Below are positions 1,218 through 62,229 of a stretch of 64,000 bases of DNA, piece after piece. Every line of letters starts with the position of its first letter. Within the stretch, counting starts at the first letter, position 1. The stretch is from a virus. The notes beneath the pieces are model-generated. The model made no database searches, was not told the DNA's origin, and worked only from the letters and a program-made list of their open reading frames with translations. The translations under genes were made by a program, and so were the position numbers. The stretch is from positions 3,227 through 67,226 of IMG/VR virus record IMGVR_UViG_3300045972_000112. One strand, written 5' to 3'.

Positions 1218-1477
1218 GCAACTACAAGTACGGCCCCACCAACCTTCATACGGGTGACTACTACCAGCAGGACTTCCCCACGATCACCGTGGAGACGCTG
1301 GTGGCGGTCGAGCCCAGCAACCGTCGCAACCTCCGAGCCTGGAAGCGTGAGCGGGCAGCCATCGCGAAGAAGGTCCACCGTCGCTCCGCGCGCGAGCACC
1401 TGGCACGACAGCGGGTCACCCCTGCCCTGTCGCGACGTCAGCGCATCCTCGTCGACCGGATCCTGGCCGAGGCCTGA
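1214..1477 (+). CDS. hypothetical basic protein
   Basis: ATGA-coupled ORF. Confidence 0.7.
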   Translation: MSNYKYGPTNLHTGDYYQQDFPTITVETLVAVEPSNRRNLRAWKRERAAIAKKVHRRSAREHLARQRVTPALSRRQRILVDRILAEA

Positions 1478-1478
1478 G

Positions 1479-1595
1479 ATGGATCCCCGCGACTTCGAGC
1501 CAGGGAAGGGGGAGAAGTGGGCTATCGCAATCTTCTTCGGCGCGTGGCTACTGGCCTACGCGACCGCAGTCGCGTGGAGCCTCTCCCGCCAGTAG
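1479..1595 (+). CDS. small membrane protein
   Basis: MDPRDFEPG...; single hydrophobic helix WAIAIFFGAWLLAYATAVAWSL. Confidence 0.55.
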   Translation: MDPRDFEPGKGEKWAIAIFFGAWLLAYATAVAWSLSRQ

Positions 1596-1813
1596 CCGAA
1601 GAGGCTGAGGAGCAGGGGATCGATACCCGAGGCATCCCGTCCCACGAATGCCTCAACTGCGGCAACAACTGCTTCAAGATCGTGGCCTGGTTCGAGGACT
1701 ACAAGATCGCTGGCTACACCACAAGCGGCTACTGCTACCTCTGCGGAGCACCAGTGACCGTACCCACCGAGATCGACGATCCATACTTCGTAAGGGACTG
1801 GGAATACTCATGA
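1574..1813 (+). CDS. zinc-binding protein (two CxxC pairs); start uncertain
   Basis: CLNC and CYLC motifs; ATGA overlap with next gene. Confidence 0.65.
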   Translation: MEPLPPVAEEAEEQGIDTRGIPSHECLNCGNNCFKIVAWFEDYKIAGYTTSGYCYLCGAPVTVPTEIDDPYFVRDWEYS

Positions 1814-2076
1814 CTGAGCAGATTCATACCGAGGACGACCCACAGGTCGTCGACCTCCTCCTGGAGACCCGCTACCTCCCCGACGAGCACGCGTTCATGT
1901 ACTCCTGGTCGGTCGAGGGTTACAGCGGCGCGCAGGCCGGATTCATCTTCACGAGCGACGACCCGGAGAGGGCCGCACTCCTCCTGCGGACCCTCTTCAC
2001 CCCTGAGGCCATCGCGTCGGTCAGGCAGGGAACCGAGGATCTCCTCGACAAGATGGACGCCGAGGCCGCGCAGTGA
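1810..2076 (+). CDS. hypothetical protein
   Basis: coupled ORF starting MTEQIHT. Confidence 0.7.
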   Translation: MTEQIHTEDDPQVVDLLLETRYLPDEHAFMYSWSVEGYSGAQAGFIFTSDDPERAALLLRTLFTPEAIASVRQGTEDLLDKMDAEAAQ

Positions 2077-3113: not shown

Positions 3114-3383
3114 ATGAGCACTGGCAGCCTCTACCGCGAGCGAACCCTCATCAACGACGTCGACCTCGCTGGTGTTTCCGCCACGGTCGAGATCGACCAG
3201 GACGGGGACGTCTTCGCCAACGTCGTCATCGCCAGCAAGTACCAGCAGGTCGACCTCGACTTCTCCCCGATCCTCGGGAGCACGCCGGAGGAGGCCCTCG
3301 GGAACCTCATCACCTACCGCGACGCGCTCAACGAGTTCTTCGCGCTGGCCGAGGAAGCGCTCGCGGAGGTCATCAATGGCTGA
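3114..3383 (+). CDS. hypothetical protein
   Basis: AGGAG RBS, typical codons. Confidence 0.75.
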   Translation: MSTGSLYRERTLINDVDLAGVSATVEIDQDGDVFANVVIASKYQQVDLDFSPILGSTPEEALGNLITYRDALNEFFALAEEALAEVING

Positions 3384-3549
3384 GGAGCAGGAACTCCCCT
3401 TCATCACTCCGGCGCAGAAGGAGCACGTCATCGATGTGCTTCATACCAGGCGTGACAACGCCTACGCCGCCTTCGACGTACTGGGGTGGCACGAAGAGGC
3501 CCAACTGGGCTACGAGTACGCCATGGCGACGCTCAAGGACGTCCTGTGA
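3376..3549 (+). CDS. hypothetical protein
   Basis: GGAGG RBS, MAEEQEL start. Confidence 0.7.
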   Translation: MAEEQELPFITPAQKEHVIDVLHTRRDNAYAAFDVLGWHEEAQLGYEYAMATLKDVL

Positions 3550-4999: not shown

Positions 5000-5071
5000 G
5001 CGCCCTTGGTGTAACGGCAGCACAGTGGCTTCCAAACCCACTAGGTCCGAGTTCAAATCTTGGGGGGCGTG
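5000..5071 (+). tRNA. tRNA-Trp(CCA)
   Basis: cloverleaf; loop TT-CCA-AA; C-C mismatch at the base of the anticodon stem. Confidence 0.8.
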
Positions 5072-5096
5072 CTGAGGAACTGGTTCAGACAGTCGC

Positions 5097-5126
5097 TTGA
5101 CAGAAGCGATTCGACTCGGCTAAGTT
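5097..5126 (+). promoter_or_regulatory. sigma70/SigA-type promoter of the tRNA operon
   Basis: TTGACA-18 nt-TAAGTT. Confidence 0.75.
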
Positions 5127-5133
5127 CCTCTTC

Positions 5134-5183
5134 GTGGCCAGGAAGAGCGGCCACAACTTGATCCTTGAGAACTGAACAGGGTG
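5134..5183 (+). promoter_or_regulatory. rrn-type antitermination leader (boxB-like hairpin plus boxA)
   Basis: GTGGCC-AGGAAGAGC-GGCCAC hairpin then GATCCTTGAGAACTGAACAG, resembling actinobacterial rrn leader boxA. Confidence 0.65.
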
Positions 5184-5211
5184 TGAGACCTCGGGAGGAG
5201 ATCCCGAGTAT

Positions 5212-5286
5212 CTAGGTGTGGGGCAGTAGGTCAGCCCGCCTGGTTTGGATCCAGGAGTACCGCAGGTTCGAATCCTGCCACCTAGA
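5212..5286 (+). tRNA. tRNA-Pro(TGG)
   Basis: CTAGGTG/CACCTAG acceptor; CCTGG-TTTGGAT-CCAGG. Confidence 0.9.
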
Positions 5287-5390
5287 CGAGAGGCGCGGAG
5301 AGGGTTCGAATCCCTCCGTGGGCCCCGTTAGCCTTCGGGTGTAAGCGGGACAACCTGCGTGGTGTAACGGCAGCACACGTCTCGCTATAT
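5287..5390 (+). ncRNA. circularly permuted tRNA-like RNA (YrlA/Y RNA-like)
   Basis: order T-arm, loop-closed acceptor stem, D-arm; 5' GAGGCG pairs with 3' CGTCTC. Confidence 0.7.
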
Positions 5391-5464
5391 CGATCCCGTC
5401 CCGGCTTGGTGAAGGGTCCCGTCTGATACGCGGGTATTGCGAGGTTCAAATCCTCGGGGATCGA
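5391..5464 (+). tRNA. tRNA-Ile(GAT)
   Basis: CGATCCC/GGGATCG; CCCGT-CTGATAC-GCGGG. Confidence 0.85.
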
Positions 5465-5653
5465 CAGCCTGGCCACTCCCTCTTTCCGCGATCCTCTATA
5501 GGCGTGGGGGAGCACGTAGGCTCAAAGACGTGGGGTCATCAGTGGCCATAGGGCCCCACGTCAACATCACGGAACCATGTCCAGTAAGGCTGATGGCCTA
5601 AGCCGCCCGCTCGCGCGGGTGATCGCTGGTCTCGGAGGGTGGCTTGATCACCA

Positions 5654-5732
5654 CTACAGCGTCGGATCCTGATCAGGTCCGGCCACAACTCGGAGATCCG
5701 CGTGTTCGTCGGTTCGAATCCGGCACTGTGGC
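5654..5732 (+). ncRNA. tRNA-like domain with acceptor and T-arm but no canonical D or anticodon arm
   Basis: CTACAG/CTGTGG stem; GTCGG-TTCGAAT-CCGGC. Confidence 0.45.
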
Positions 5733-5827
5733 TGCTCCGACTGACCGAAGAACGAGGCGACAGAGCGCGCCTACCCCGCTAGGTCGGGGGTCGACGGGAG
5801 GCTCGTGGTTCCGCAATGCAAGTCAAT

Positions 5828-5901
5828 GGGGTTGTTGCCAAGTGGCCTAAGGCATCTGTCTTCCAAACAGATAATCGCGGGTTCGAATCCCGCCTGCCCC
5901 T
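5828..5901 (+). tRNA. tRNA-Gly(TCC)
   Basis: TCTGT-CTTCCAA-ACAGA; U discriminator. Confidence 0.9.
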
Positions 5902-5905
5902 CTCT

Positions 5906-5978
5906 GCCGTTGGAACTCTTTAGGAAGAGTGCCTGCCTTGTAAGCAGGATGCAGCAGGTTCGAATCCTGTCAGCGGCT
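5906..5978 (+). tRNA. tRNA-Thr(TGT)
   Basis: GCCGTTG/CAGCGGC; CCTGC-CTTGTAA-GCAGG. Confidence 0.9.
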
Positions 5979-6035
5979 CTGGGTGAAGCGAGTCCTAGCC
6001 TGTTGCGACGGGCCGCATATCTCGTGGATCCCTAT

Positions 6036-6109
6036 TGCTCTCTAGGGGAATTGGCAGACCCACCCGGCTCTGAACCGGGAGTGTCCAGGTTCGAGACCTG
6101 GGAGAGCAG
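6036..6109 (+). tRNA. tRNA-Gln(CTG)
   Basis: TGCTCTC/GAGAGCA; CCCGG-CTCTGAA-CCGGG. Confidence 0.9.
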
Positions 6110-6262
6110 CGTGAAGGTGCTGCACACCTTCATCCCGGCCCGAGCGGGACAAATCAACGGGAGTGCGCGGGTGCATCTTAGGGACTCGGATAACGGTAGC
6201 GCTGTCCTGGAATACAGCGTCGGCTGGGCGAGGGTGTGCAGACCGTCTCGCCCAGCCACCAC

Positions 6263-6334
6263 GTCCCCATGGGCTATGGGATAGGCCTTCTCCCTTTCAC
6301 GGAGACAGAGTGGGTTCGAGTCCCACTGGGGGTA
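6263..6334 (+). tRNA. tRNA-Glu(TTC)
   Basis: TCTCC-CTTTCAC-GGAGA; T-arm GTGGG-TTCGAGT-CCCAC. Confidence 0.85.
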
Positions 6335-6452
6335 CTAGATCGGAGCGCCTGATCCGCCCACTCTTTCGGTCGCGGATGAACGGGATTCCTCGGAAAGCGT
6401 CGGGTTCGAGCATGACCGGCGAGGCGGAAAGGATCCCTGGCCCGATCTTTAA

Positions 6453-6525
6453 GGGGTAGTAGCACAACTGGCAGTGCATCTGCTTTGCAAGCAGACGGTT
6501 CGGGGTTCGAGTCCCCGCTATTCCA
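6453..6525 (+). tRNA. tRNA-Ala(TGC)
   Basis: G3:U70 pair; TCTGC-TTTGCAA-GCAGA. Confidence 0.92.
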
Positions 6526-6575
6526 CGCAAGTAGTTCGGCACCTATACCCACCACGCGCACGAGGAGGTTCGACA

Positions 6576-6956
6576 GTGGCCTTGCAGCACAAGCATCTAC
6601 TGGTCCAGGGCAGGATCAACCAGCCCCTTACCGACGAGCGTGAGGCCGAGCGTTGGCTTCACTGGCTCGTTCAGCAGATCGATATGAAGGTCGTACTCTC
6701 GCCTCGCGCGTTCTACGTGCAGGCGGTCGGGAATCGCGGGATCACGGCGAGCGTCAATATCGAGACGTCGCATATCGCGTTTCATATCTGGGACGAGCAG
6801 GAGCCGCCGCTCATCCAGTTCGATCTCTACACCTGCGGCCCGCTCGACCACGAGCAGGTCATAGGACTGCTCAACCGCAAGTTGGACTTCGAGTCGATGC
6901 AGTACCTGGTGCTGGATCGCGAAGATGGATTCCAGGTCACGCACGTCAAGACCTGA
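6576..6956 (+). CDS. speD: S-adenosylmethionine decarboxylase proenzyme-like
   Basis: HKHLLV, GITASVNIETSHIAFHIW, QFDLYTCG motifs; GAGGAGG RBS before GTG. Confidence 0.85.
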   Translation: MALQHKHLLVQGRINQPLTDEREAERWLHWLVQQIDMKVVLSPRAFYVQAVGNRGITASVNIETSHIAFHIWDEQEPPLIQFDLYTCGPLDHEQVIGLLNRKLDFESMQYLVLDREDGFQVTHVKT

Positions 6957-6964
6957 GATCCTCC

Positions 6965-7039
6965 GTCCCCATGGAGGAATTGGGTAGACTCACCGCCCTC
7001 TCAAGGCGGGTCTTGCGGGTTCAAATCCCGCTGGGGATG
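6965..7039 (+). tRNA. tRNA-Glu(CTC)
   Basis: CCGCC-CTCTCAA-GGCGG. Confidence 0.9.
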
Positions 7040-7043
7040 CTCT

Positions 7044-7117
7044 GGTTTCATGGCGCAGTCAGGTAGCGCAGCCGGTTGTCAGCCGGAAGGTCGCGGGTTC
7101 AAGTCCCGCTGGAACCG
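7044..7117 (+). tRNA. tRNA-Asp(GTC)
   Basis: GGTTTCA/TGGAACC; loop TTGTCAG; G discriminator. Confidence 0.9.
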
Positions 7118-7190
7118 CTCGGTGTCTGGTGGGGTCGAGCCCGCCAGTGTTGGAGTTCATATGCCAACAGGGGAGGCCCGCACCTGCAAT

Positions 7191-7264
7191 GCCCCTCTAG
7201 TCCAACTGGCAGAGGCGTCCGGCTTAGATCCGGAATGTTGGGGGTTCGAATCCCTCGGGGGGCA
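7191..7264 (+). tRNA. tRNA-Leu(TAG), short variable loop
   Basis: TCCGG-CTTAGAT-CCGGA; 5-nt variable region. Confidence 0.85.
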
Positions 7265-7422
7265 CGGGAGTTTCTTGCTTCTCCTGCGGCGCGTCCGCGT
7301 CAAGAGCAAGTGGTGGGCCGTGTGGGAGACCGCACCCCCTGTGTTGGCACACTAGGCAGTGTCAGCGCGACACGGTGGGATCCGTGGCATCACAAAGAGA
7401 AACGAAGCGGATCCCACCGTTT

Positions 7423-7496
7423 GCCCGTCTAGTCCAATTGGCAGAGACGTCGGCTTCAAACCCCGAAGGTTCTCGGTTCGAATCCGAGGATGGGCA
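7423..7496 (+). tRNA. tRNA-Leu(CAA), short variable loop
   Basis: GCCCGTC/GATGGGC; TCGGC-TTCAAAC-CCCGA. Confidence 0.8.
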
Positions 7497-7498
7497 CT

Positions 7499-7573
7499 GT
7501 GACAGTAGTTCAGCGGTAGAACGCCCGACTGTGACTCGGGTCGTCGCGGGTTCAAATCCCGCCTGTCACCCCA
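7499..7573 (+). tRNA. tRNA-His(GTG), encoded CCA, no G-1
   Basis: CCCGA-CTGTGAC-TCGGG; C73-CCA; T at -1. Confidence 0.9.
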
Positions 7574-7644
7574 GGTCCTGTGGCTGAAAGGCTAGGCAGC
7601 GGGTTGCAACCCCGTCGATGTCGGTTCGATTCCGGCCAGGTCCT
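7574..7644 (+). tRNA. tRNA-Cys(GCA)
   Basis: GCGGG-TTGCAAC-CCCGT; U73. Confidence 0.88.
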
Positions 7645-7646
7645 CC

Positions 7647-7719
7647 CTCGGTGTAGTTCAATGGATGAACGAAGCGCTACGAACGCTTGCGTATGGGGGT
7701 TCGAGTCCCTTCACCGAGA
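7647..7719 (+). tRNA. tRNA-Arg(ACG)
   Basis: CTCGGTG/CACCGAG; AAGCG-CTACGAA-CGCTT. Confidence 0.9.
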
Positions 7720-7794
7720 CTGGGTACGTCCTCACCTCCCGGCGCTTCTGGGCCTGAACCCCAGCGAGTACCCAGTACGGGTTAACGAGGACAT

Positions 7795-7866
7795 GGGTTC
7801 CTGGCGTAAGCGGAAACGCACTGGTTTGAAGAACCAGGGTTGGAGGTTCGAGTCCTTCGGTTCCCA
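7795..7866 (+). tRNA. tRNA-Phe(GAA)
   Basis: CTGGT-TTGAAGA-ACCAG; two U-U mismatches in the acceptor stem. Confidence 0.8.
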
Positions 7867-7876
7867 CGCAAGATAG

Positions 7877-7949
7877 CGACGTGTGGCGCAATTGGCAGCG
7901 CAGATGGCCTACACCCATCCGGCTGGGGGTTCGAGTCCCTCCGCGTCGA
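7877..7949 (+). tRNA. tRNA-Val(TAC)
   Basis: GATGG-CCTACAC-CCATC (C at 33). Confidence 0.82.
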
Positions 7950-8101
7950 CTGCACCATCCACCCGCGCTCAGGTGAGCATGTAGCGCTAGGACTTCATCT
8001 GCCTAGCGGTGCGCGGGATGCACGGGCCCTGGCTGCGGGTGGCTAAGCCGGGGCCACACTTCCCAGTAAACTAGAGGCTGGACAAGCCCGGGAGATCAAC
8101 G

Positions 8102-8437
8102 ATGGCTCATAGCAACGCCCTCTACCAGCGCGACGTTCGACTCAAGTCGGTGGAGCGGGTGACTGTAGCCATCGCTGCGGTGGCGCTAGCGGCCACCTGC
8201 GCCCTAGTGGCTGGGATCGAGGCAAGCGCTCACCGAACGGTAGCCGCCCCGGTTCCTGGCCCGACCGTGTACGTCACAGAGACGGTAACGGTGACCCAAA
8301 CTCCAGTGCCTACCCCAAGCCCGCGTCATGCGATCAAGGCAGTAGCCGCGCCGAAGCCGTCACCAACACCGCACAAGGTGCTGTACACCCCAAAGACGAC
8401 CCCCAAGAAGCCGGTAGCGGCTAGCGGGGGCAGTTAA
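8102..8437 (+). CDS. secreted or membrane-anchored Pro/Thr-rich protein
   Basis: GGAG RBS; hydrophobic segment then PT/PK-rich linker. Confidence 0.65.
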   Translation: MAHSNALYQRDVRLKSVERVTVAIAAVALAATCALVAGIEASAHRTVAAPVPGPTVYVTETVTVTQTPVPTPSPRHAIKAVAAPKPSPTPHKVLYTPKTTPKKPVAASGGS

Positions 8438-8521
8438 TCCTCTGTCGCCTAACGGTATGGCACCTGGCTGTTAACCAGGCGTGGCGCAAGCCATGTACAG
8501 GTTCGAATCCTGTCGGAGGAG
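8438..8521 (+). tRNA. tRNA-Asn(GTT) with long variable arm
   Basis: TCCTCTG/CGGAGGA; CCTGG-CTGTTAA-CCAGG; V-arm CGTGGC-GCAA-GCCATG. Confidence 0.85.
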
Positions 8522-8533
8522 CGCAAGAACTAC

Positions 8534-8614
8534 GTGTCGGAGGCCCCAAGGTGGGGCTGGTGGCTGTAACCCACCCGCTTTCGAGCATGCTTGGTTCGAT
8601 TCCAAGTCGGCACA
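8534..8614 (+). tRNA. tRNA-Tyr(GTA)
   Basis: GGTGG-CTGTAAC-CCACC; V-arm GCT-TTCG-AGC. Confidence 0.88.
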
Positions 8615-8770
8615 CAACCTCTCAAACTGCCCGGTGATTCTGAGTCCGTGTTGGGGAATCGGGGCAAGTGGGAAGGCCAGGGTAGACCCGGCGTCCTTAT
8701 CTCTCGGGTGAGTCTGAGAAGGGGACGCTACGGACGAAACCGGGGATCCACGGACACCTCGGTCGTCTCA

Positions 8771-8842
8771 GCCGTGATAGTTCAACGGAAGAACGCCCGC
8801 CTCCTAAGCGGGTGGCTGGTGGTTCGAATCCACCTCATGGCA
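8771..8842 (+). tRNA. tRNA-Arg(CCT)
   Basis: CCCGC-CTCCTAA-GCGGG. Confidence 0.9.
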
Positions 8843-8943
8843 CGGGGTCTACGGCCACACTCCGACCCCTACTAAACGGTGTGGCGCTCTACCCTCCTCC
8901 TCCCGGCCACACTGGGCCCAAACTGTCGGGAGGGGGAGGTCCA

Positions 8944-9017
8944 GCCTCGCTAACTCAGTTGGTCAGAGTAGCGGACTCTTAATCCGCGAGTCGTTGGTTC
9001 GAATCCAACGCGGGGCA
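8944..9017 (+). tRNA. tRNA-Lys(CTT)
   Basis: GCGGA-CTCTTAA-TCCGC. Confidence 0.92.
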
Positions 9018-9029
9018 CGCAAGACCTAC

Positions 9030-9410
9030 GGGGTCGACAGGTTTCGACTTGTTGGAGACTCTTCTAGGAGCGACCGGACTTGGGCAGAGTCTTGAAACGG
9101 CCCGACGCAATACTCGGCAACATCGAGAAGGTCAACTTCCTCGGTGCAGTCCGTGACGCCAACCTCGTCACTGTCTGAACCTAGGTAACGGCCAAACCAG
9201 GGACCTAACAAGGCACCCGGGGTTCGGGTAGAACGACCTAGCAACAGAACCTACCCCCCACGCGCGAGGGCAGCGCGCTGACAGTGTCCGGAAAGACGGG
9301 CAGGACTGCTGGAGAGACAGATGAAACACGGACCTCGACGTCGAGGAATGGTCGTACGTCTTAGTCGTTAGTCAATACCAAGGACGGGGGTTCGATTCCC
9401 CCCGACTCCA
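9030..9410 (+). ncRNA. ssrA: tmRNA; tag ORF 9116-9178 GNIEKVNFLGAVRDANLVTV*
   Basis: 5' GGGGTCGACAGGTTTCGAC; 3' GACGGGGGTTCGATTCCCCCCGACTCCA; G3:U pair; ATACTC-G resume context. Confidence 0.9.
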
Positions 9411-9417
9411 AGAGCGC

Positions 9418-9903
9418 TTAGCCAGTAGCACTGAGCGTTGTTGGAGTCGCGTCAATGTCCCCGTACTTGGAAAGGATCTCGTTAGCCCAGGCAACCGCAT
9501 CCCTAGCGCGGATACCAGCGGGTTGCGGTCGAATCCATAGTTCTAGGTTCTCTAGGCGGTTGTCACCCTTTACGCCATTCATATGGTGAACGTTCTCTCC
9601 TTCTGAGAGAAACCTGCCTAGGTGATCCTCCATTACAAGTATGTGCTCGAAGACATATGGGCCTCCGCGAGGGTGCCCATCGATACGACGCATGACGTAC
9701 CCCTTCTTGTGTCGGGCGACACCGCCCTTCCAGTTCCCGTTTGCCGAGCCGGTGTAGTCGGTGCAGGCCCGACACTTCGGGGCTTCCTTAGCCTTTCTCT
9801 CTCCGCAGATGCACTCGTTGTACCTTACGGCGCGACAACGCGGGCAGTTGAGATGGCGGCTTGACGGGGAGAACTCTTCCTTGCATGATCTACAGGTACG
9901 CAT
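9418..9903 (-). CDS. HNH homing endonuclease
   Basis: N-terminal CxxC pairs; EHILVM...VHHMNGVKGDNRLENLELW. Confidence 0.9.
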   Translation of the reverse strand: MRTCRSCKEEFSPSSRHLNCPRCRAVRYNECICGERKAKEAPKCRACTDYTGSANGNWKGGVARHKKGYVMRRIDGHPRGGPYVFEHILVMEDHLGRFLSEGENVHHMNGVKGDNRLENLELWIRPQPAGIRARDAVAWANEILSKYGDIDATPTTLSATG

Positions 9904-9951
9904 GTGGAGAAGCGTATCGTAGAAGCAACAACTCTTGTCTTCTCCACGCAC

Positions 9952-10025
9952 TGCGGTGTGACTGGAGCGGTTCCAGCCCTGCCTCATAAGCAGAACAGAC
10001 GTCGGTTCGAATCCGACCACCGCTA
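9952..10025 (+). tRNA. tRNA-Met(CAT), initiator-like
   Basis: U1xU72 mismatch; loop CTCATAA. Confidence 0.82.
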
Positions 10026-10167
10026 CGCGTTCTTCCCGTGCTTTCCGGGCCACGTAGGCTTTGGTAAGCGTGAACCTCCGAACTAACCGGGTAAGGTTCG
10101 GACGCCAGAGAGCGGCCCGTCGGTGCCGTGAGTGTTCTCTCGTACGGCGAAGATCAGAAACCGACAT

Positions 10168-10251
10168 GGGAGGTCTAACATCGGTGGCGTGTCGCGGTCT
10201 TGAAAACCGTAGGTTGTAACAGACCTGGGGGTTCGAATCCCTCACCTCCCG
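10168..10251 (+). tRNA. tRNA-Ser(TGA)
   Basis: GCGGT-CTTGAAA-ACCGT; long V-arm; G73. Confidence 0.85.
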
Positions 10252-10300
10252 CGTACCCCCCATACTCGCCTCTGATTCAAGCGGTATGGGGGACAGATAC

Positions 10301-10384
10301 GGGCGGCGTCCGGCTGGACGAGGAGCACGATTGCTAGTCGTGTAGCAGGTAGAACTGCTGGGGGTTCGAGTCCCTCGCTGTCCG
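10301..10384 (+). tRNA. tRNA-Ser(GCT)
   Basis: CACGA-TTGCTAG-TCGTG; long V-arm; G73. Confidence 0.88.
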
Positions 10385-10423
10385 CGTTCTCACACCCTGT
10401 TCGGTCTCAGGGACACTTGTCTC

Positions 10424-10942
10424 ATGACAGAGACGCTTGAGGTCGGGGATCTGATCCTCCTTCATACGACCGACCCGTTTGCACGCGCGATTCAGGTCTT
10501 CACCCTGAGTCCGTACAACCATGTCGCGTGCTACATCGGTGAGGTCAAGGGAGTCCCGACGGCCATCGAGGCGCACCCCACGGGAATCACCGAGACCCCA
10601 GTATCCACCTGGGACCTCAGCGACCCGGCCAAGGCCCTCATCGTCAAGTTTCCGCTGACCGACGCGCAGCGCAAGAAGGCTGTCATATTCTGGTACACCC
10701 TGCTCGGGCTCAAGTACGGCTGGATCGACATCTTCGCGATGCTGTTCACCAGGCTTGGATTCAAGGCGAAGTGGCTTGTGAATCGCGCGAAGAGCGACAA
10801 GCGCTGGGTGTGCTCGCAGGTTGCGACCGGGGGATTCGCTGCGGCAGGATTCGAGATCCCGTTCGACCCAGCGCGGGAAGACTGGGCTGCCTCTCCGTCC
10901 GACATCGCGAACGCTTACCTTCTCTACAAGGCGGCGCTATGA
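10424..10942 (+). CDS. permuted papain-like NlpC/P60 (YiiX/YebB-type) amidase
   Basis: GDLIL, YNHVA, EAH, C-terminal VCSQV (His before Cys). Confidence 0.8.
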   Translation: MTETLEVGDLILLHTTDPFARAIQVFTLSPYNHVACYIGEVKGVPTAIEAHPTGITETPVSTWDLSDPAKALIVKFPLTDAQRKKAVIFWYTLLGLKYGWIDIFAMLFTRLGFKAKWLVNRAKSDKRWVCSQVATGGFAAAGFEIPFDPAREDWAASPSDIANAYLLYKAAL

Positions 10943-11125: not shown

Positions 11126-11254
11126 ATGACGCTTGACGAGTTCATCGAAGAGACGCTTCTTGGCTGGAAGCCGGAGCCGTGGCAGTTGCGGATCCTTCAT
11201 ACGGTCGCTTCTACCTCAGAATCACTCGAATTGAGTCAAAGGGCAGGGGCTTAA
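11126..11254 (+). CDS. small ORF overlapping the 3' end of the integrase, possibly truncated
   Basis: MTLDEFIEETLLGWKPEPWQLRILHT... Confidence 0.35.
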   Translation: MTLDEFIEETLLGWKPEPWQLRILHTVASTSESLELSQRAGA

Positions 11255-12551: not shown

Positions 12552-12557
12552 ACCCGC

Positions 12558-12586
12558 AGGCTACGGCCTCATCAAATAGACCGCAA
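12558..12586 (-). promoter_or_regulatory. leaderless promoter of the integrase
   Basis: minus strand TTGCGG-17 nt-TAGCCT-6 nt-ATG; no RBS. Confidence 0.6.
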
Positions 12587-12605
12587 CGAAGGTAACGGTC
12601 TATTT
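12574..12605. repeat. inverted repeat, candidate attP
   Basis: AAATAGACCG-12 nt-CGGTCTATTT just upstream of int. Confidence 0.55.
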
Positions 12606-12861
12606 AGTAGGGGTATTCGGGCAGGTCAGGGGCCCCGAGGATCTTCCCTGTCCGCGCGAAGTGGATCCGGTCCTCGATGACGTCGTGGCCCATCCCCAGG
12701 AGGTCGAGGATCTCCCGGGCAGTGTCAAAGTCTGGGACGAGGACAGCCTCGCCGTGCCGGATCAGGTGCAGCGCCCTCTTGACAGTGGAGGGGCGCAGGT
12801 GGGATAGGGCAGGGCCCTCGCTCCCCACGAACAGTGTCGGGGTAACCCAGAAGGTCTTCAC
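12604..12861 (-). CDS. hypothetical protein
   Basis: GTGA overlap with the ParB-like gene stop. Confidence 0.65.
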   Translation of the reverse strand: MKTFWVTPTLFVGSEGPALSHLRPSTVKRALHLIRHGEAVLVPDFDTAREILDLLGMGHDVIEDRIHFARTGKILGAPDLPEYPY

Positions 12862-13310
12862 TTCCTCGGTGGTCCCCACGGTCCCTCCAACTGGATCGCA
12901 CGGAACTGCGACCCCTTGATGAGGGACGCGGTAGCCCGGTGGTGGCCGGACAGCAGCAGGTTGGTGCCGTCCTCTCGTGCGTACAGTACCGGCCTTCGGT
13001 TCCCCGCGTTGTTCTGATCGGCGTAGGTCGTTCCGGTCTCCTCGTAGTCGGGGTGCTCCAGGTAGTGCTGCACCGCCGAACGGGTGACGGAGGGCTGGGT
13101 CGCAGACAGTGTCTTGAGATCGACGTCCACCATCTGGTGACCCTGGGGATGAAGCAGCGCCGCGCGGACGACGTCCGGGTTGTAGTCCTGGCGGTCCCGG
13201 CGCTTGCCCGCCTGGGACCACGGAGCCGACGTGATGGGCGCTCCATCGGGGAAGAGCCGGTCAAGGCTTCCTGAGCCTGCTGCGCGCTCGCCGCGAGGTG
13301 TGAGTGACAT
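12858..13310 (-). CDS. ParB/Srx-like nuclease-domain protein
   Basis: LSATQPSV, PVL...LLLSGHHRATA. Confidence 0.75.
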   Translation of the reverse strand: MSLTPRGERAAGSGSLDRLFPDGAPITSAPWSQAGKRRDRQDYNPDVVRAALLHPQGHQMVDVDLKTLSATQPSVTRSAVQHYLEHPDYEETGTTYADQNNAGNRRPVLYAREDGTNLLLSGHHRATASLIKGSQFRAIQLEGPWGPPRK

Positions 13311-16054: not shown

Positions 16055-16159
16055 AATCGTCTCTTACCCCATACTTGCGCGCTTGTGATTGCAGGCGTAC
16101 GTTGTTGTCTAGTTGAAGCGATACACCACACCACAGACAACTGGGAGATGAGATGGGAA

Positions 16160-19933: not shown

Positions 19934-19962
19934 TTGACACACCAGGTCCGAGAGTGGACTAT
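19934..19962 (+). promoter_or_regulatory. putative promoter
   Basis: TTGACA-17 nt-GACTAT. Confidence 0.4.
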
Positions 19963-54460: not shown

Positions 54461-55732
54461 ATGGCCGCACTATCGAGCACGGGGTACGCGCGTGGCAGCG
54501 GCTTCGCGTCGATCTTCCGGTACTCCGGAAGGAATCTGGCGAGTCTCGGGCTCGCCGCGTCCTCTGCCAGCGCGGCGCTGACGCGGTACCGACCAGCGGG
54601 TGGTGTCACGGACTTCGGGTGGGCCCCTCCAGGTGCTCCCGACCCCGCGATGCTCGGCGTGACGGTGACGGGCGGGCACACCGCGTACAGCACCGCCTCC
54701 AACGTCGCAGCCAACTCTCCGTACACCGAGGTCACCTTCCCTGAGGAGTACCGTCGCCCGGACGGTCAGATCCTCTGGAAGCGCGGGGACTACGCAGCCA
54801 TCGTGGCCGAGTTTGACTACGTCCCCAACGGATACGTCGTGAGTGGGACGAACTTTAGCCTGCGACCGTACTCCGCTACCGACCCCGGAAACGTCATCCA
54901 CGTAGAGCCGGACCGCTTCAACTTCGTCCCCGACTCCGGCTTCAATGACCAGGGCGTAGTCGCTGCCACTACCTCACTGGGGTTCGGGTACTCAGCCAGC
55001 ACTGGTGGTGGCTCCTCGAACGTGGCAACGGCAACAACCTACGCGAAGAGCAGCACGTTCGGGCTTCGGTACACACAGGTGACCACGACCAGCATCGGTA
55101 CGGACTACGTGCCGCTGACCGAGGGCGTGAAGATCACAGGACTACTGCCTCACGCAGGACAGTGGAACATCCTCAGCGCCTGGGTTCGCCACGTATCCAA
55201 CGTCCCAACGGCGGGTGTCTACATCGAGGTCAGCGTAACCCCGGTGGGTGGCACCGCTGTGGTCACCCGGGGATCCAGCACCGCGAAGCCTGATGACACC
55301 TATGTGGCTGCTGATGGGACTATCTGGAACAGGATCAGCGTCCCGTTCTTCGTACCCAACGGTGACTACAGCAGCGGAACCGCTGTCTTCGCGACAATCG
55401 GGCTGCGGCACATCACGCTGACAGCGGGCGTGATGCCCGTGTTCGACGTCGATGAGATCCTCGGGGAGCGCGGAGTCACCCTTCGCCCCTACTTCGGTCT
55501 CGACAAGAACGCGGACCCGGACGGATCTGGTGCCCTAGCCAGCGACTACTTCCGCGCTGCCAGCACCTCGACCTACTGCGCCTACCTGGAGCACCGCACA
55601 GAGACGATCTCCAACCTGTCGCGGAACATCTCCCAGGAACTGCCCTGGTTCTCGACGGCTTCCTTCACGTATGTCGGTTACCCAAGCGACATCATCAATG
55701 CGACTCCGGTGACTGGTACGTTCGTGCTGTGA
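54461..55732 (+). CDS. minor tail protein
   Basis: position; beta-rich composition. Confidence 0.6.
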   Translation: MAALSSTGYARGSGFASIFRYSGRNLASLGLAASSASAALTRYRPAGGVTDFGWAPPGAPDPAMLGVTVTGGHTAYSTASNVAANSPYTEVTFPEEYRRPDGQILWKRGDYAAIVAEFDYVPNGYVVSGTNFSLRPYSATDPGNVIHVEPDRFNFVPDSGFNDQGVVAATTSLGFGYSASTGGGSSNVATATTYAKSSTFGLRYTQVTTTSIGTDYVPLTEGVKITGLLPHAGQWNILSAWVRHVSNVPTAGVYIEVSVTPVGGTAVVTRGSSTAKPDDTYVAADGTIWNRISVPFFVPNGDYSSGTAVFATIGLRHITLTAGVMPVFDVDEILGERGVTLRPYFGLDKNADPDGSGALASDYFRAASTSTYCAYLEHRTETISNLSRNISQELPWFSTASFTYVGYPSDIINATPVTGTFVL

Positions 55733-56022
55733 TCCTCCACCTGGTGCTCTGCTCCCTGGCCGTCTTCTGGCTCTGGGAGGTCCTGCTGTCCTGGGTACCG
55801 GTCACCTCCGCGCTACGCGCCTTCCTGGTGGCTGGTCTGGGCTACTGGGCCTACGCCTACTGGCCGGACTCGGTCCTCGCTGCGCTCAGCATCGCGACAG
55901 CCGTAGGTCTGCTGCACCGGTACGCCGTCGGGGGAGACCCTGACCTCGTGGAACTCCGACTCCCGAGGCGTTCGAAGTCGTACCCGCCTGGTGTAGGCAA
56001 CCGGATTCCGGATCTCCCCTAA
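55729..56022 (+). CDS. membrane protein (possible holin)
   Basis: three hydrophobic segments and charged C-terminus. Confidence 0.6.
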   Translation: MILHLVLCSLAVFWLWEVLLSWVPVTSALRAFLVAGLGYWAYAYWPDSVLAALSIATAVGLLHRYAVGGDPDLVELRLPRRSKSYPPGVGNRIPDLP

Positions 56023-58380: not shown

Positions 58381-58659
58381 ATGGCATTCGAGTTCGATGA
58401 GCGGGACAAGCAGGACATCGAGACCACGATCTTCACGGCCATCGGTGCCGCCAGCACCTGCTGGGAGTCCTTGTGGGAGGCCGGGGTGTTCGATAGCGAC
58501 CGCGCCAAGGAGATCGGGGACGCACTTCATACCGAGTTCCAGGCCTACGTCCGTCAGCACGAGGTCGCTGCCCGACAGGCCATGGAGCAGGCCACCCACT
58601 ACCGCGCCCTGTGGGAGATGGAGAAGGCCTCTCACCTGCCGACTGCGAGCCGGGTATGA
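58381..58659 (+). CDS. hypothetical protein
   Basis: AGGAG RBS. Confidence 0.7.
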   Translation: MAFEFDERDKQDIETTIFTAIGAASTCWESLWEAGVFDSDRAKEIGDALHTEFQAYVRQHEVAARQAMEQATHYRALWEMEKASHLPTASRV

Positions 58660-59297: not shown

Positions 59298-59553
59298 CCG
59301 CCAGCACGTTCGCTTCCATACCGGGTTCTCTGCCACGGAACTCCCGGTGATCGACATCGACACCGCCATCGAGCATGCAGTTCGCCGCGTCGTAAGCCAG
59401 ATGGCTGAACTGGGATTCTCTCCCGTCATGTTCCAGCACCCCGAGGTCGAGTTCAGGCCGTACGCCGAGAACCATTCCTACGCCTACCTGGTATCCCTGG
59501 TGGGTTACTCGAATCATGGCAGGCTCGCACTCAGGGAGCCGATCCACGTATGA
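59290..59553 (+). CDS. hypothetical protein
   Basis: overlapping ORF in operon. Confidence 0.6.
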   Translation: MSDRQHVRFHTGFSATELPVIDIDTAIEHAVRRVVSQMAELGFSPVMFQHPEVEFRPYAENHSYAYLVSLVGYSNHGRLALREPIHV

Positions 59554-59999
59554 GGGGCGGGGACATCAGCGCAACCGTGAGTCCCCGTTTCGTCGTCGTG
59601 TTCGAGGACCTGCTCGGCTTCCCTCCGAAGGAGCCGGTTCATACCAGGACCCGTCTGGGTCGCAAGGTGGATCACTCGAACGACGCACGCTACTGGGAGA
59701 TCAACGACCAACTGGCGCGCAGCATCTGGGACGTGGTGTCCCGCTACGACTACAGCGTGGACGTCGTGACCTTCATCGACCCCGAGTTCGCTGACCAGAT
59801 CCGCGAGCGACTGGACGACGAGCGCCTTCCCGTGGGACGGGTCTGGTTCGAGCAGCCACACCAGTTGGCTCGACGACTCGCCTACTCACCTGACATCGCT
59901 GGTGTCTTCTTCGCCAGCCCCGAGTACCGCTTCACCTTCGGTAGCAAGGGCTACCCGGTTGACGTCGCGTCCTCCAACCTGATGGGAGCCCTGCGCTAG
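59550..59999 (+). CDS. hypothetical protein
   Basis: ATGA overlap; abuts dnaB. Confidence 0.7.
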   Translation: MRGGDISATVSPRFVVVFEDLLGFPPKEPVHTRTRLGRKVDHSNDARYWEINDQLARSIWDVVSRYDYSVDVVTFIDPEFADQIRERLDDERLPVGRVWFEQPHQLARRLAYSPDIAGVFFASPEYRFTFGSKGYPVDVASSNLMGALR

Positions 60000-61265
60000 A
60001 TGGACATCGACCGCCTCTTGGTATCCCGCATCATCCAGGACCAGTCGCTCACGGCTGTCGCTGAGGCTGCGATCACCCCGAAGTTCTTCCGGGACGCGGA
60101 GTCCCGCTCCGTCTTCAAGGCGATCCTCGCGCATCACACGAAGCATGGTGCTGTGCCCAGCCTCGGAGCCATCCGACTGGACCACCCCACCTACAACTTC
60201 GTGAAGTGCTCGGACCCGATGTCCTTCCTGATCGACGAGATCCGGGAGAGGCACAAGTTCGCGCTGCTCGAAGACGCGCTGGCGGAGGCAGCCGATACCT
60301 TCAACGAGGCCTCGTCCTCAGAGATCATGAACATCCTCCAGTCGGCCCTCAACAACGTGCATGCGGATGCACCGAGCACCCGCGACACCGACATCACGCT
60401 GACCGGCATGGAGCGACTGGCCCGATACCTGGAGCGCAAGGAGAACCCGGACAGCATGCTCGGGATCCCCACCGGGTTCAGCACCATCGACAAGGCAACC
60501 CAGGGGATCCAGAAGGAGCAACTCATCACCCTGGTGGGTCCTCCGAAGGCTGGCAAGACGACCCTCATGCTGCTGGTCGCCATCGCCGCGTGGCTCCAGG
60601 GATACAAGCCGCTGTTCTTCACGTTCGAGATGAGCACCGACGAACTGACCGAGCGACTCGACGCGTTCCGGTCCGGCATCAGCGCCTCCCGGCTCCGCAA
60701 CGCCACCTTCACGAAGGAGGAGGAGGCACGCCTGGCCAAGCATCTTCGCGCCATCGATGCCATGCACTCCTTCATCATGTCGGCGGACTCCGCTAACGCC
60801 ACGACCCTGTCTGGCATCGCCGCGAAGATCGATCAGTACAAGCCCGACATCGTCTTCGTCGATGGTGTCTACCTCCTCCAGGACGAGAACGGGGAGAAGG
60901 CTGGGTCACCCCAGGCCCTCACCAACCTGACTCGTGGCTTCAAGCGGATGGCTCAGAACCGGAGCATCCCGGTGGTAATCAGCAGCCAGGTGCTGGAGTG
61001 GAAGATGGACCGCAAGAAGGGCATCACCTCCAACAGCATCGGTTACTCCTCCTCGTTCGCGCAGGACTCCGACACGATCATCGGTGTCGAGAAGACCGAC
61101 GACGACAACATCCAGAAGTTGAAGATCGTCCTGGCCCGACACAGCCCATCACTGGAGACGTACGTGATGTGGAACTGGGAGAACGGGACCTTCGAGGAAC
61201 TGGACAGCGACCCCTTCATCGGCGCGGAGGGTGGTGGCTGGGATGGCGAAGGCTCGCGTTTCTAA
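60000..61265 (+). CDS. dnaB: DnaB-like replicative helicase
   Basis: GIPTGF, GPPKAGKT, FEMS, VFVDG, SQ, QDSD. Confidence 0.93.
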   Translation: MDIDRLLVSRIIQDQSLTAVAEAAITPKFFRDAESRSVFKAILAHHTKHGAVPSLGAIRLDHPTYNFVKCSDPMSFLIDEIRERHKFALLEDALAEAADTFNEASSSEIMNILQSALNNVHADAPSTRDTDITLTGMERLARYLERKENPDSMLGIPTGFSTIDKATQGIQKEQLITLVGPPKAGKTTLMLLVAIAAWLQGYKPLFFTFEMSTDELTERLDAFRSGISASRLRNATFTKEEEARLAKHLRAIDAMHSFIMSADSANATTLSGIAAKIDQYKPDIVFVDGVYLLQDENGEKAGSPQALTNLTRGFKRMAQNRSIPVVISSQVLEWKMDRKKGITSNSIGYSSSFAQDSDTIIGVEKTDDDNIQKLKIVLARHSPSLETYVMWNWENGTFEELDSDPFIGAEGGGWDGEGSRF

Positions 61266-62229
61266 CTGGGACCACTTCGGAACACCGGTACCCGGCGACG
61301 TCTACCGATGCCTGGAGGAGATGGGCGTCGAGATCATCCGCGAGGTTCAGGGCGAGGTGCTGGGCAGGTGCCCGATGCACTTCGCGCGTACCGGCAAGGA
61401 GGACGCGCACCCATCCTGGTCCGTCAACGTCGACAGCGGTGTCTTCAACTGCTTCTCGTGCGGCTACAAGGGACCCTTCGTTCTGCTCGTGCAGGATGTC
61501 CTCGACGTGGACCGGGCCGAGGCCGTCGCGTGGGTTCGTGAGCGCGGTGGTATCGAGCGCGTCCGCAAGATGTTCCGGGAGGACAAGGGACTCAAGGTCA
61601 TCGACACCACGGAGCAGATCAACGAGGCCAGCCTCGCACTCTTCATCGACCCTCCGCAGTGGGCCCTCGACGACCGCGACCTGCTGCTCGAATCCGTGCA
61701 TCTGTACGGGGTCTCCTGGGACGACCGCAACGAGCGCTGGATCCTCCCTATCCGTGACCCTGACACCGACGTCCTCATGGGGTGGCAGGAGAAGGGCAAG
61801 GACTGGTTCAAGAACTTCCCCTACGGAGTTCCGAAGTCCAACACCCTGTTCGGAAGCCGCGCGTTCGGTGACGCAGACTTCGCCATCGTCGTGGAGTCAC
61901 CACTCGATGCGTTGCGGATTCATACCGCTGGCTTCGACGGAGCCGTGTCCACCTATGGTGCTGCGGTCTCCCACAAGCAGATCCAGATCCTCAAGGGACT
62001 CACCGACGAGATCGTGTTCGCGCTGGACAACCCCTGGATCGACAAGGCCGGGAAGAAGTCCATGGAGTCGCTGGCTCAGTCGCTGCGGGGGAGTGGGCTA
62101 CGCGTCCGCTTCTTCGACTACGCGGGCAGCGACGCCAAGGATCCCGGCGAGATGGAGGACGACGAGATCGCGTGGGGAATCGAGCACGCCATCCCGCTGC
62201 ACCTGGTGGGTGTGACCCTTGCTAACTAG
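61243..62229 (+). CDS. DNA primase (zinc finger plus TOPRIM)
   Basis: CPMH...CFSC; VESPLDA; LDN; KDPGEM. Confidence 0.9.
   Translation: MAKARVSNWDHFGTPVPGDVYRCLEEMGVEIIREVQGEVLGRCPMHFARTGKEDAHPSWSVNVDSGVFNCFSCGYKGPFVLLVQDVLDVDRAEAVAWVRERGGIERVRKMFREDKGLKVIDTTEQINEASLALFIDPPQWALDDRDLLLESVHLYGVSWDDRNERWILPIRDPDTDVLMGWQEKGKDWFKNFPYGVPKSNTLFGSRAFGDADFAIVVESPLDALRIHTAGFDGAVSTYGAAVSHKQIQILKGLTDEIVFALDNPWIDKAGKKSMESLAQSLRGSGLRVRFFDYAGSDAKDPGEMEDDEIAWGIEHAIPLHLVGVTLAN

Follow-up and report, generated by a model that had tools for sequence, protein, structure and literature searches.

TTCATAC, a strand- and frame-locked word written in rare codons within the genes of a temperate-type actinophage and a related Streptomyces prophage, as a possible ribosome-read signal

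A 64,000-bp stretch of viral DNA (IMG/VR record IMGVR_UViG_3300045972_000112, bases 3227–67226 of a 67,226-bp record; CheckV completeness 68%, GC content ca. 62%), which in its full length is referred to as the window, carries the heptamer TTCATAC inside its open reading frames (ORFs), on the sense strand only and in a single codon phase. The same word, in the same phase, was found in a prophage of Streptomyces sp. NPDC002088, and the data from both genomes establish TTCATAC as an oriented signal at the nucleotide level that is under selection and written through the choice of codons. As to its function, we tentatively favor, with somewhat less than an even chance of being right, a translated cis-element in which a rare-codon triplet and a following hairpin act as a programmed ribosome pause or gate.

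The window belongs to a contractile-tailed, actinobacterial phage encoding sheath, tube and baseplate proteins, as well as an Lsr2-like protein, DnaB, a DnaG-type primase, and an SNF2 helicase. Its major capsid protein is 76% identical to that of the Streptomyces phages BRock, GiJojo, pSt2308, LuckySocke, and Alone3, and it is solely through these relatives that a Streptomyces host is suggested. Genes and start codons were called with a simple (and crude) codon-usage caller, which placed 76 of 80 window genes on the plus strand, the exceptions including a leftward block (11211–13310) with a serine integrase gene.

TTCATAC occurs 12 times on the plus strand of the window and not once on its minus strand, with identical counts across the whole 67,226-bp record, and every position listed in the original prediction, together with its claim that reverse copies are missing, proved right. 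Because nearly all window genes lie on the plus strand, the strand bias alone is weak evidence. In 100 dinucleotide shuffles, the word averaged 1.75 copies (largest 5; 0/100 reaching 12); one or two copies had been roughly estimated. Eleven of the 12 copies lie within called plus-strand genes, every one of them as xTT-CAT-ACS (Leu/Ile/Val-His-Thr), and the 12th (at 11196), within a 42-codon ORF (11126–11254), is likewise in this phase, so that the single codon phase noticed earlier holds for 12/12 copies. The codons involved are rare ones, as had been claimed, with CTT making up 10% of Leu, ATT 6% of Ile, GTT 10% of Val, and CAT 24% of His codons in the window.

A comparison of codon choice across all 14 [LIVF]-H-T tripeptides of the called window proteome showed 11 to be encoded xTT-CAT-ACS. 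The enrichment withstood the codon-shuffled null that had been put forward as its test: 300 within-gene synonymous shuffles gave an expectation of 0.70 copies (largest 4) vs. the 11 observed (P = 3e-10), making TTCATAC the top in-frame 7-mer, and a dicodon-style expectation from the motif's own codon pairs (21 × 14 / 78 = 3.8) still fell below 11. More generally, xTT-CAT outnumbers xTT-CAC by 21 to 6 in the window, and by 15 to 1 when the next base is an A. The other two phases are empty, as none of 32 x-S-Y and none of seven F-I-[LPHQR] tripeptides carries TTCATAC, while TCA, with 7.6% of the window Ser codons, is no rarer than CTT. A weaker variant, TTCATAT, is present seven times on the plus strand and once on the minus strand, four of its five in-gene copies being in the same phase (vs. 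0.21 expected). Only a C at –1 stands out in the window flanks, and no longer consensus emerged.

The copies are also unevenly distributed. Eight of the 12 are situated in the first 30 codons of their ORF, a zone that holds 13.5% of codons (P = 3e-5), which agrees with the earlier remark that many copies lie near gene starts. The near-absence from capsid and tail genes that had been noted turned out to be complete, with no copy in the virion block (34635–57221; 7301 of 18042 codons, i.e., 40%).

The window is at the same time purged of restriction-type words to an extreme degree. AGCT is lacking (vs. 211 expected), CGATCG, CGGCCG, CTCGAG, GGCGCC, GCCGGC, CTGCAG, GTGCAC, TGCGCA, and the non-palindromic pair CTTCAG/CTGAAG are all absent, and CCGCGG and CACGTG occur once each. 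AGCT is likewise missing from two distant contigs, G001 (124 kb, GC 45%) and G002 (103 kb), and is found 438 times in the first 100 kb of GiJojo. This purge does bend codon choice in the window, Leu after xAG being encoded by TTG or TTA in 46/46 cases, and when ranked among all 7-mers against low-order Markov nulls TTCATAC is not the top word, coming 8th to 29th behind tRNA words and words shaped by AGCT avoidance. Both observations would suit a word without function, arisen by codon-pair bias, as a by-product of restriction-site avoidance, or by chance among 16,384 7-mers. We consider such an origin extremely improbable, and regard it as refuted by alternative encodings that are not avoided and by the prophage data. 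CCACAC is present 14 times on either strand, CACAC 46 times on the plus and 35 times on the minus strand, and TCCACAC twice on the minus strand; as these words of the alternative encodings are not avoided, a by-product of restriction avoidance was rejected. Moreover, a single change would destroy a site, yet two rare codons are always chosen together, and TTCATAC with its overlapping words, followed by TTCATAT, are the sole strong in-frame outliers once AGCT-avoidance words are set aside. The prophage, finally, is an independent genome that keeps both AGCT (10–20 copies per 10 kb) and CTTCAG, and its main coding strand has 39 copies of TTCATAC all the same (P = 7e-94).

This prophage was reached through a terminase search of genome contigs, which returned a 203-kb contig of Streptomyces sp. 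NPDC002088 (G005:C18) with a terminase 75% identical to that of the window. A block of this contig, from ca. 78 to 183 kb, has a GC content of 63–67% (vs. 70–71% in its flanks), is syntenic with the window from 19.9 to 64 kb, and carries integrases, and is thus a prophage. All 39 copies on its main coding strand (Markov expectations 1.1 to 3.4) read CTTCATAC, with 34 being CTTCATACC and five CTTCATACT; the whole 10.7-Mb genome has 181 TTCATAC copies, both strands counted. The 35 copies within called plus-strand genes are all in frame as Leu-His-Thr, four more are in frame within mini-ORFs, and one further CTTCATAC, on the opposite strand, belongs to a leftward 53-codon gene next to the integrases, where it is again sense and in frame. 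The motif thus follows the coding strand even in this leftward gene, and 40/40 prophage copies are in frame. The sole other reverse-strand TTCATAC of the prophage, GTTCATAC in a rightward gene, was taken as chance.

The pattern is stronger than had been noted at first. In the prophage, where CTT accounts for 6% of Leu and CAT for 11% of His codons, CTT-CAT-ACC was counted 32 times vs. 0.016 expected from codon frequencies (P = 7e-94). Neutral codon statistics give no preference to the frame used, hand estimates from the prophage codon counts being ca. 0.08, 0.02, and 0.006 copies for phases 0, 1, and 2, respectively, and only 1/55 x-S-Y tripeptides uses TCA-TAC. The LHT tripeptide itself is about tenfold overrepresented (38 vs. 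3.9 expected), with 36/38 encoded CTT-CAT-ACY. Homologous proteins read LRT, LQA, LHE, LRA, or SRA at these places in ungapped alignment, indicating that LHT arose by point substitution and not by insertion. As for the window, its relatives lack the tripeptide at homologous positions: the primase reads RIHTAG where its relatives have RIFTAG or RLYTAG (F or Y in place of H), while the VHI of the portal protein is kept in GiJojo but encoded there as GTC CAC ATC instead of GTT CAT ATC, so that the word was made by both synonymous and amino-acid changes. The original prediction of an oriented signal encoded through synonymous codons therefore stands as to selection and orientation, but not as to its being synonymous only. 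Furthermore, the primases of the two phages carry the word on opposite sides of the TOPRIM glutamate, and with orthologues bearing it at differing places, what is selected seems to be that a gene or region has the word, and not the exact residue at which it lies.

The prophage sites are densest in a 30.9-kb replication, nucleotide-metabolism, and lysis block (22 sites), followed by the right-end 20.8 kb (11 sites) and the 26.9-kb virion block (six sites). A 19.9-kb block of small genes of unknown function (G005:C18 142300–162200) has none, while the blocks flanking it are dense, and it may represent a different expression class. The flanks in the prophage show a G at –1 in 28/39 sites, C-rich –3 and –2 positions, and a T or G at +9.

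Conservation in related phages, which had been proposed as a check, was seen in the NPDC002088 prophage with its 40 copies, but no enrichment was found in GiJojo, BRock, pSt2308, LuckySocke, or distant metagenomic contigs. Seven other Streptomyces genomes among the 401 searched carry a related terminase (60–67% identical); the prophage stretches of four (G183, G156, G140, and G049) contain 0 to 2 TTCATAC, both strands counted, and no equivalent codon-triplet outlier. Five other Streptomyces genomes each contain 8 to 28 CTTCATACY without any cluster. Neither a megablast search against phages nor a DnaB search of metagenome contigs yielded a relative close enough for a conservation test, and a search of viral contigs returned distant contigs only, all without the motif. 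No RNA run was listed among those containing the window stretch. Two pond-metagenome DNA runs, one of them perhaps its source, do contain it as near-identical contigs, which are uninformative on site variation. The motif-bearing genomes are two, the window phage and the NPDC002088 prophage.

Word copies lie 1–14 codons downstream of start codons, or else deep within ORFs. Eighteen of the 39 prophage sites are at most 15 codons past a start supported by a Shine–Dalgarno (SD)-like sequence (vs. 689/4000 control codons, P = 3e-5), as are 6/12 window sites (vs. 568/4000, P = 0.004), and a mild tendency to lie within 25 codons of an in-frame stop was seen as well (10/39 prophage sites vs. 517/4000 controls, P = 0.03). 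The four prophage copies located between called genes are each in frame within a mini-ORF of 9 to ca. 24 codons (one of 24 to 29 codons), and in three of the four the stop codon overlaps the ATG of the next gene. These mini-ORFs encode MRLHTWAAV (TAATG overlap), MPIRLHTYGFYGAAE, MNNRLHTSAEAANASA (preceded by AGGAG, TGATG overlap), and VQRDLL..LHT.. (the 24- to 29-codon one, ending in TGATG). The phage thereby provides mini-ORFs for copies that would lack translation without them.

A second feature is found directly downstream. The 45 nt following the 9-mer in the prophage are predicted to fold more stably than controls (–17.1 vs. –12.4 kcal/mol, P = 4e-9; P = 4e-11 against AT-matched controls), while folding of the 45 nt upstream is no different from controls. 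The best predicted hairpin starts between –3 and +3 nt after the 9-mer in 25/39 sites, with a mode of +2 where control offsets are flat, and pairing within the motif itself is predicted to be lower than in AT-matched controls. At several gene ends and mini-ORFs of the prophage, the predicted hairpin encloses or abuts the next start codon. In the window the effect is weaker (–13.6 vs. –11.15 kcal/mol, P = 0.026), with clear predicted hairpins after four sites. Since the stem sequences vary between sites, the stems were built in place from the coding sequence; the hairpins are energy predictions.

The data show the word with its frame, strand, selection, and positions, along with the mini-ORFs and the predicted hairpins; from these we infer ribosome pausing, a P/A-site register, an effect on expression, and any part that the tRNA-His of the phage or a different lineage-specific factor may play. 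Whatever reads double-stranded DNA or free RNA would be blind to frame, yet 52/52 copies share one, and the simplest frame-aware reader is the ribosome. The element would then consist of (C/A/G)TT-CAT-AC(C/G) in the window or CTT-CAT-AC(C/T) in the prophage, i.e., rare U-ending Leu/Ile/Val and His codons, with a GC-rich stem-loop usually within ca. 2 nt of the word. Given the usual tRNA sets of such hosts, G:U wobble is the only way of reading xUU and CAU, and at both codons it would be expected to slow decoding. If the P site is occupied by xUU and the A site by CAU, the +2 mode of the hairpin offset would let the stem-loop begin 5 nt beyond the A-site codon, roughly at the position of the mRNA entrance and helicase of the ribosome. 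A ribosome held there, in most cases just past a start codon or shortly ahead of that of the next gene, might control the nearby gene boundary, either by throttling initiation on the same gene or, in the manner of leader-peptide attenuation, by unmasking the start of the next one, and the signal would mark a class of mainly non-virion genes in a temperate lineage.

Several points weigh against a pause or gate of this kind. We know of no single 9–12 nt word that acts as a pause site. CTC and CAC, which are decoded by the same tRNAs as CTT and CAT, are never used, so that the reader senses nucleotides or wobble pairs instead of tRNA identity, and a protein or RNA binding the word would explain this nucleotide strictness more simply; the flank preferences of the prophage sites (G at –1, T or G at +9) also look like a binding site, and together with the strictness they form the gravest objection. 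For 16 of the 39 prophage sites, no SD-supported start and no stop lies nearby, and a role at gene junctions can therefore not cover every copy. In addition, the hairpins are thermodynamic predictions not backed by covariation, and start codons were assigned by a crude caller. Finally, the motif is missing from relatives that share the gene order, which makes the function lineage-specific and dependent on a lineage-specific partner, and the candidate tRNA-His is also present in GiJojo, a phage without the motif.

The most obvious precedent for an oriented, repeated phage word is the stoperator. In cluster A mycobacteriophages such as L5 and TipsytheTRex, stoperators are found in promoters and short intergenic spaces, where they are bound as double-stranded DNA by the immunity repressor, and the orientation of the 26 TipsytheTRex sites correlates with the direction of transcription (PMC9283540, PMC6550527). 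TTCATAC resembles them as a short asymmetric word with tens of copies in a temperate actinophage, its orientation following transcription (12 plus-strand and no minus-strand copies in the window; 39 copies plus one sense leftward copy in the prophage). TTCATAC might be a double-stranded DNA site at which a repressor or silencer acts as a roadblock that keeps lytic genes silent in the lysogen. Such a function would be consistent with both motif-bearing genomes being temperate or integrase-carrying and with the lytic-looking relatives of the BRock group lacking the motif, with 39–40 copies aligned with transcription much like the 26 sites reported for TipsytheTRex (PMC9283540, PMC6550527), and with flank preferences that extend the word to ca. 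11–12 bp. Pfam searches even offer candidate binders, i.e., the Lsr2-like protein, common only to the two motif-bearing genomes, and a WhiJ/BldB-like pair in the prophage. A double-stranded DNA site is frameless, though, yet all 52 copies agree in frame, and the opportunities for writing the word synonymously in the other frames go unused. Copies between genes are wrapped in mini-ORFs, and the adjacent hairpin of variable sequence has no role in a roadblock. Compared with stoperators, which lie in short intergenic spaces, TTCATAC sits inside ORFs, in one frame (52/52) and with a hairpin after it, and the sequences are unrelated. On balance, we deem a DNA-bound roadblock unlikely, if not negligibly so.

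Another comparison is with the start-associated sequence (SAS/ESAS) of cluster K mycobacteriophages, an asymmetric 13-bp word in 11–19 copies, mostly in one orientation, at the translation starts of a gene subset; ca. half of the SAS copies have an adjacent inverted repeat, and participation in translation initiation has been proposed (PMC3203893). The SAS immediately precedes the start codon and includes the SD core AGGAG, and the inverted repeat belonging to it is likewise upstream and conserved in sequence (PMC3203893). TTCATAC shares with SAS/ESAS its tie to translation starts and its asymmetry. It differs in being located downstream of the start or anywhere in the ORF, in being translated, in lacking an SD core, and in having its hairpin downstream and variable in sequence. 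The in-frame word thus lacks a defining feature of both stoperators and SAS.

The predicted hairpin would also fit a site that acts in RNA, where an unpaired word beside a stem-loop is read by an endoribonuclease or RNA-binding protein. A cut could separate the start of a gene from its body or create a hairpin-capped 5′ end, so that polycistronic mRNA is processed or shut off; the RegB nuclease of phage T4 acts comparably at GGAG. The confinement of the word to the sense strand, its predicted unpaired state, the stable hairpin predicted directly after it, and its clustering at gene boundaries are all compatible with this, and the prophage encodes a number of RNA-handling proteins (two RNA ligases, PNKP, RlaP, and a ProQ-C-like protein). 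Three of the genes concerned form an RNA-repair set at G005:C18 165152–169081 (RlaP, a T4 Rnl1-type RNA ligase, and PNKP), and the second RNA ligase, the ProQ-C-like protein, and a SpoVS-like protein are encoded elsewhere in the prophage. A reader that acts independently of the ribosome, in turn, leaves the frame-lock and the mini-ORFs unexplained, and Pfam and PHROGs revealed no sequence-specific RNase among the proteins scanned. Nucleases of the RelE family are ribosome-dependent and cut in the A site, and a RelE-like enzyme would yield the frame-lock, in which case RNA cleavage merges with a ribosome pause. Cleavage or binding at the RNA level is in our view about as improbable as the DNA roadblock.

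The mechanisms entertained by the original prediction, i.e., a repressor roadblock, a primase or recombination site, or an RNase site, accordingly retain some probability and now rank below a signal read in translation. None of them needs a reading frame, and they fit poorly because of the frame-lock (12/12 and 40/40), the dedicated mini-ORFs, and the hairpin that follows the word.

If the ribosome does read the word, it might slip on it instead of pausing. Programmed +1 frameshift heptamers are known from Ty1 (CUU-AGG-C) and prfB (CUU-UGA-C), and TTCATAC resembles them as an in-frame heptamer that has CUU in the P site and a poorly decoded codon next to it, some of the known cases also having a nearby stimulator. 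Peptidyl-tRNA with G34 pairs with UUC as well as or better than with xUU; it could slip from xUU to UUC, with the rare CAU delaying the A site and the hairpin serving as stimulator, or the His codon could be decoded in some special way. The core xTT-C-AT-A has this +1-slippery P-site form, since xTT-C is invariant across the sites (in the window the first base is C, A, or G and TTC never changes), and the predicted structure lies 5 nt beyond the A-site codon. The tRNA-His of the prophage (anticodon GTG; G005:C18 172645–172729, L061 2645–2729), one of the five tRNAs also retained there, moreover has an odd variable arm of ca. 14 nt, unusual for tRNA-His, although with a possible G-1 and a C73. 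The window tRNA-His, on the other hand, is ordinary, including in length. No defined product exists in another frame, the normal frame keeping its coding signal after every site, and stop distances in the +1 frame are scattered (10 to 153 codons after the 12 window sites, 7 to 465 in the prophage), as are those in the –1 frame; given these patternless distances, a frameshift product was rejected. The A-site codon after a +1 shift would be ATA, which is among the rarest, and some forty shifts in helicase, primase, polymerase, and ribonucleotide reductase genes would mostly waste protein. Known +1 heptamers, in contrast, have a trans-frame ORF or product and come one per needing gene, not 40 per genome. 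We hold recoding to be very unlikely.

Several other systems share elements with the pause or gate that we favor. In the erm and cat leaders and the his and trp attenuators, a short ORF with critical codons precedes a stem-loop over the next ribosome binding site or start, and the position of the ribosome decides on its opening. With their predicted hairpins, the four mini-ORFs and several gene-end copies would have this layout, which applies to four of the 39 plus-strand prophage sites as far as short upstream ORFs are concerned and not to the internal sites; unlike in leader attenuation, most copies are in long genes and one fixed nucleotide word is reused everywhere. In Streptomyces, bldA/TTA control uses a rare codon within ORFs to mark a gene set that depends on a particular tRNA. 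TTCATAC likewise marks a gene set through rare codons and both motif-bearing phages have a tRNA-His, but bldA control involves one codon without context or hairpin, while here 9–12 nt are fixed, and GiJojo has the tRNA-His without the motif. The bacterial selenocysteine insertion sequence (SECIS), finally, combines an in-frame UGA with an adjacent hairpin of conserved loop and the SelB factor. It shares with TTCATAC an in-frame codon directly followed by a stem-loop within coding sequence, and differs in that here UGA is absent, the hairpin loops vary, and no SelB-like factor was found among the proteins scanned.

Two further possibilities were considered. A trans-acting RNA complementary to the word found no support in the 67-kb record, which lacks ca. 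one-third of the genome: GTATGAA does not occur on its plus strand, and complements of the 6-mers were met in unremarkable places. A mimic of an anticodon loop closed by a stem was rejected because, by eye, the flanks of the word do not pair.

Candidate partners for a ribosome-read word are the tRNA-His of both phages and the few small proteins common only to the two motif-bearing genomes, the window genes for such proteins being 16148–16369, 19312–19530, 19934–20200, 21034–21294, 33721–33993, and 55729–56022. In the window, the tRNA-His (anticodon GTG) is encoded at 7499–7573 on the plus strand, and its part as a trans-acting partner is putative. The host's own tRNA-His was not found in NPDC002088 by a short pattern or by BLAST with the phage tRNA, and Pfam and PHROGs scans of the proteins examined returned no RelE-type or other sequence-specific RNase, SelB-like factor, or phage RNA polymerase. 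In its most far-reaching form, which we see as possible though rather doubtful, CUU-CAU-ACY with its stem-loop is a genome-wide, ribosome-read word of a temperate, Streptomyces-type myophage lineage at which ribosomes pause, are cut, or slip, so that one lineage-specific trans-factor could switch the translation of ca. forty genes. This factor might be the supply of phage tRNA-His, a ribosome-dependent nuclease, or a small protein common to both phages.

The repeated control words known from phages are DNA sites that serve repressors or polymerases. A translated, one-frame, hairpin-paired word that rewrites residues in essential genes would instead represent a new kind of multi-gene regulation within coding sequence and, if true, a genome-wide translational regulon, i.e., a translational counterpart of stoperators. 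No description of a TTCATAC, CTTCATACC, or GGTATGAAG motif was found in the literature searched (supplementary files aside), the matches listed being primers or unrelated papers, nor was any report of a conserved Streptomyces-phage motif combining rare codons and a hairpin, most subscription journals lying outside this search. The NPDC002088 prophage offers a testable system, as it resides in a sequenced Streptomyces strain and has 40 sites, its mini-ORFs being natural reporters and the motif-free relatives serving as controls. More broadly, scans for in-frame codon-triplet outliers can catch signals that searches for intergenic motifs miss.

The individual window sites, all on the plus strand, are as follows. 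CTT-CAT-ACG (L-H-T) at 1244–1252 begins at codon 11 of 87 in the called gene 1214–1477, and ATT-CAT-ACC (I-H-T) at 1822–1830 at codon 5 of 88 in the gene 1810–2076, directly preceded by ATG ACT GAG CAG and followed after 3 nt by a predicted 7-bp hairpin (GACGACC/GGTCGTC; 1834–1851). CTT-CAT-ACC (L-H-T) at 3439–3447 is called as codon 22 of 57 in the gene 3376–3549, and abuts a predicted 6-bp hairpin (AGGCGT/ACGCCT; 3448–3463); with an in-frame GTG directly upstream, and AAGGAG 12 nt before this GTG, the site may in fact begin at codon 2. CTT-CAT-ACG (L-H-T) at 10460–10468 is codon 13 of 172 in a C92-peptidase-like gene (10424–10942), the first gene past the tRNA array. The same triplet at 11195–11203 is codon 24 of the 42-codon ORF 11126–11254, which converges on the 3′ end of the leftward serine integrase gene (11211–12551) and may be a remnant or a genuine small gene. 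CTT-CAT-ACC (L-H-T) is found at 13464–13472 (codon 23 of 447, exonuclease-like gene 13398–14741), with a predicted 7-bp hairpin 1 nt further on (13474–13490), and again at 18674–18682 (codon 170 of 212, gene 18167–18805). GTT-CAT-ACC (V-H-T) at 27317–27325 is codon 16 of 346 in a glycosyltransferase/TPR-like gene (27272–28312), and CTT-CAT-ACG (L-H-T) at 34443–34451 is codon 144 of 157 in the endonuclease VII gene (34014–34487), the stop codon following 12 codons on. Past the virion block, CTT-CAT-ACC (L-H-T) at 58525–58533 is codon 49 of 92 in the gene 58381–58659, upstream of a DnaC-like loader gene, and GTT-CAT-ACC (V-H-T) at 59637–59645 is codon 30 of 149 in the gene 59550–59999, with a predicted 5-bp hairpin (GACCC/GGGTC; 59648–59661) 2 nt past it. 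The last site, ATT-CAT-ACC (I-H-T) at 61918–61926, is codon 230 of 332 in the DnaG-type primase gene (61231–62229).

The four in-phase copies of the weaker variant, likewise on the plus strand, are CTT-CAT-ATC (L-H-I) at 664–672 (codon 17 of 116, gene 616–966), TTT-CAT-ATC (F-H-I) at 6780–6788 in an S-adenosylmethionine-decarboxylase-like gene (6576–6956), GTT-CAT-ATC (V-H-I) at 35172–35180 in the portal gene, and ATT-CAT-ATG (I-H-M) at 50065–50073 in a baseplate-hub-like gene (49054–50235).

The decarboxylase-like gene sits within the window tRNA array (5000–10385), which comprises 24 tRNAs and a tmRNA (9030–9411; Rfam, 65.9 bits). In the prophage, the tRNA cluster contains a cyclic di-AMP riboswitch (RF00379; G005:C18 171513–171654, L061 1513–1654; 59.8 bits vs. 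a gathering score of 38) directly before a gene for a LysM-NlpC/P60 cell-wall hydrolase, and in the host DNA left of the prophage ARAGORN identified an 89-nt tRNA-Ala with anticodon AGC (G005:C18 59526–59614, L055 9526–9614).

Two other regions of the window deserve mention. No gene was called over 1.3 kb between an LtfC-like gene and a 484-codon gene (24482–25775), where the long plus-strand ORF 24488–25765 has its GC peak in second codon positions (0.66/0.83/0.52) and its antisense counterpart is atypical too. Further downstream, a 1188-codon gene (28321–31887) encodes collagen-like Gly-Pro-Thr repeats, four fibronectin type III domains, and a DUF6242 end, and its CCT-ACC-GGA triplets constitute the other strong codon-triplet outlier of the window.

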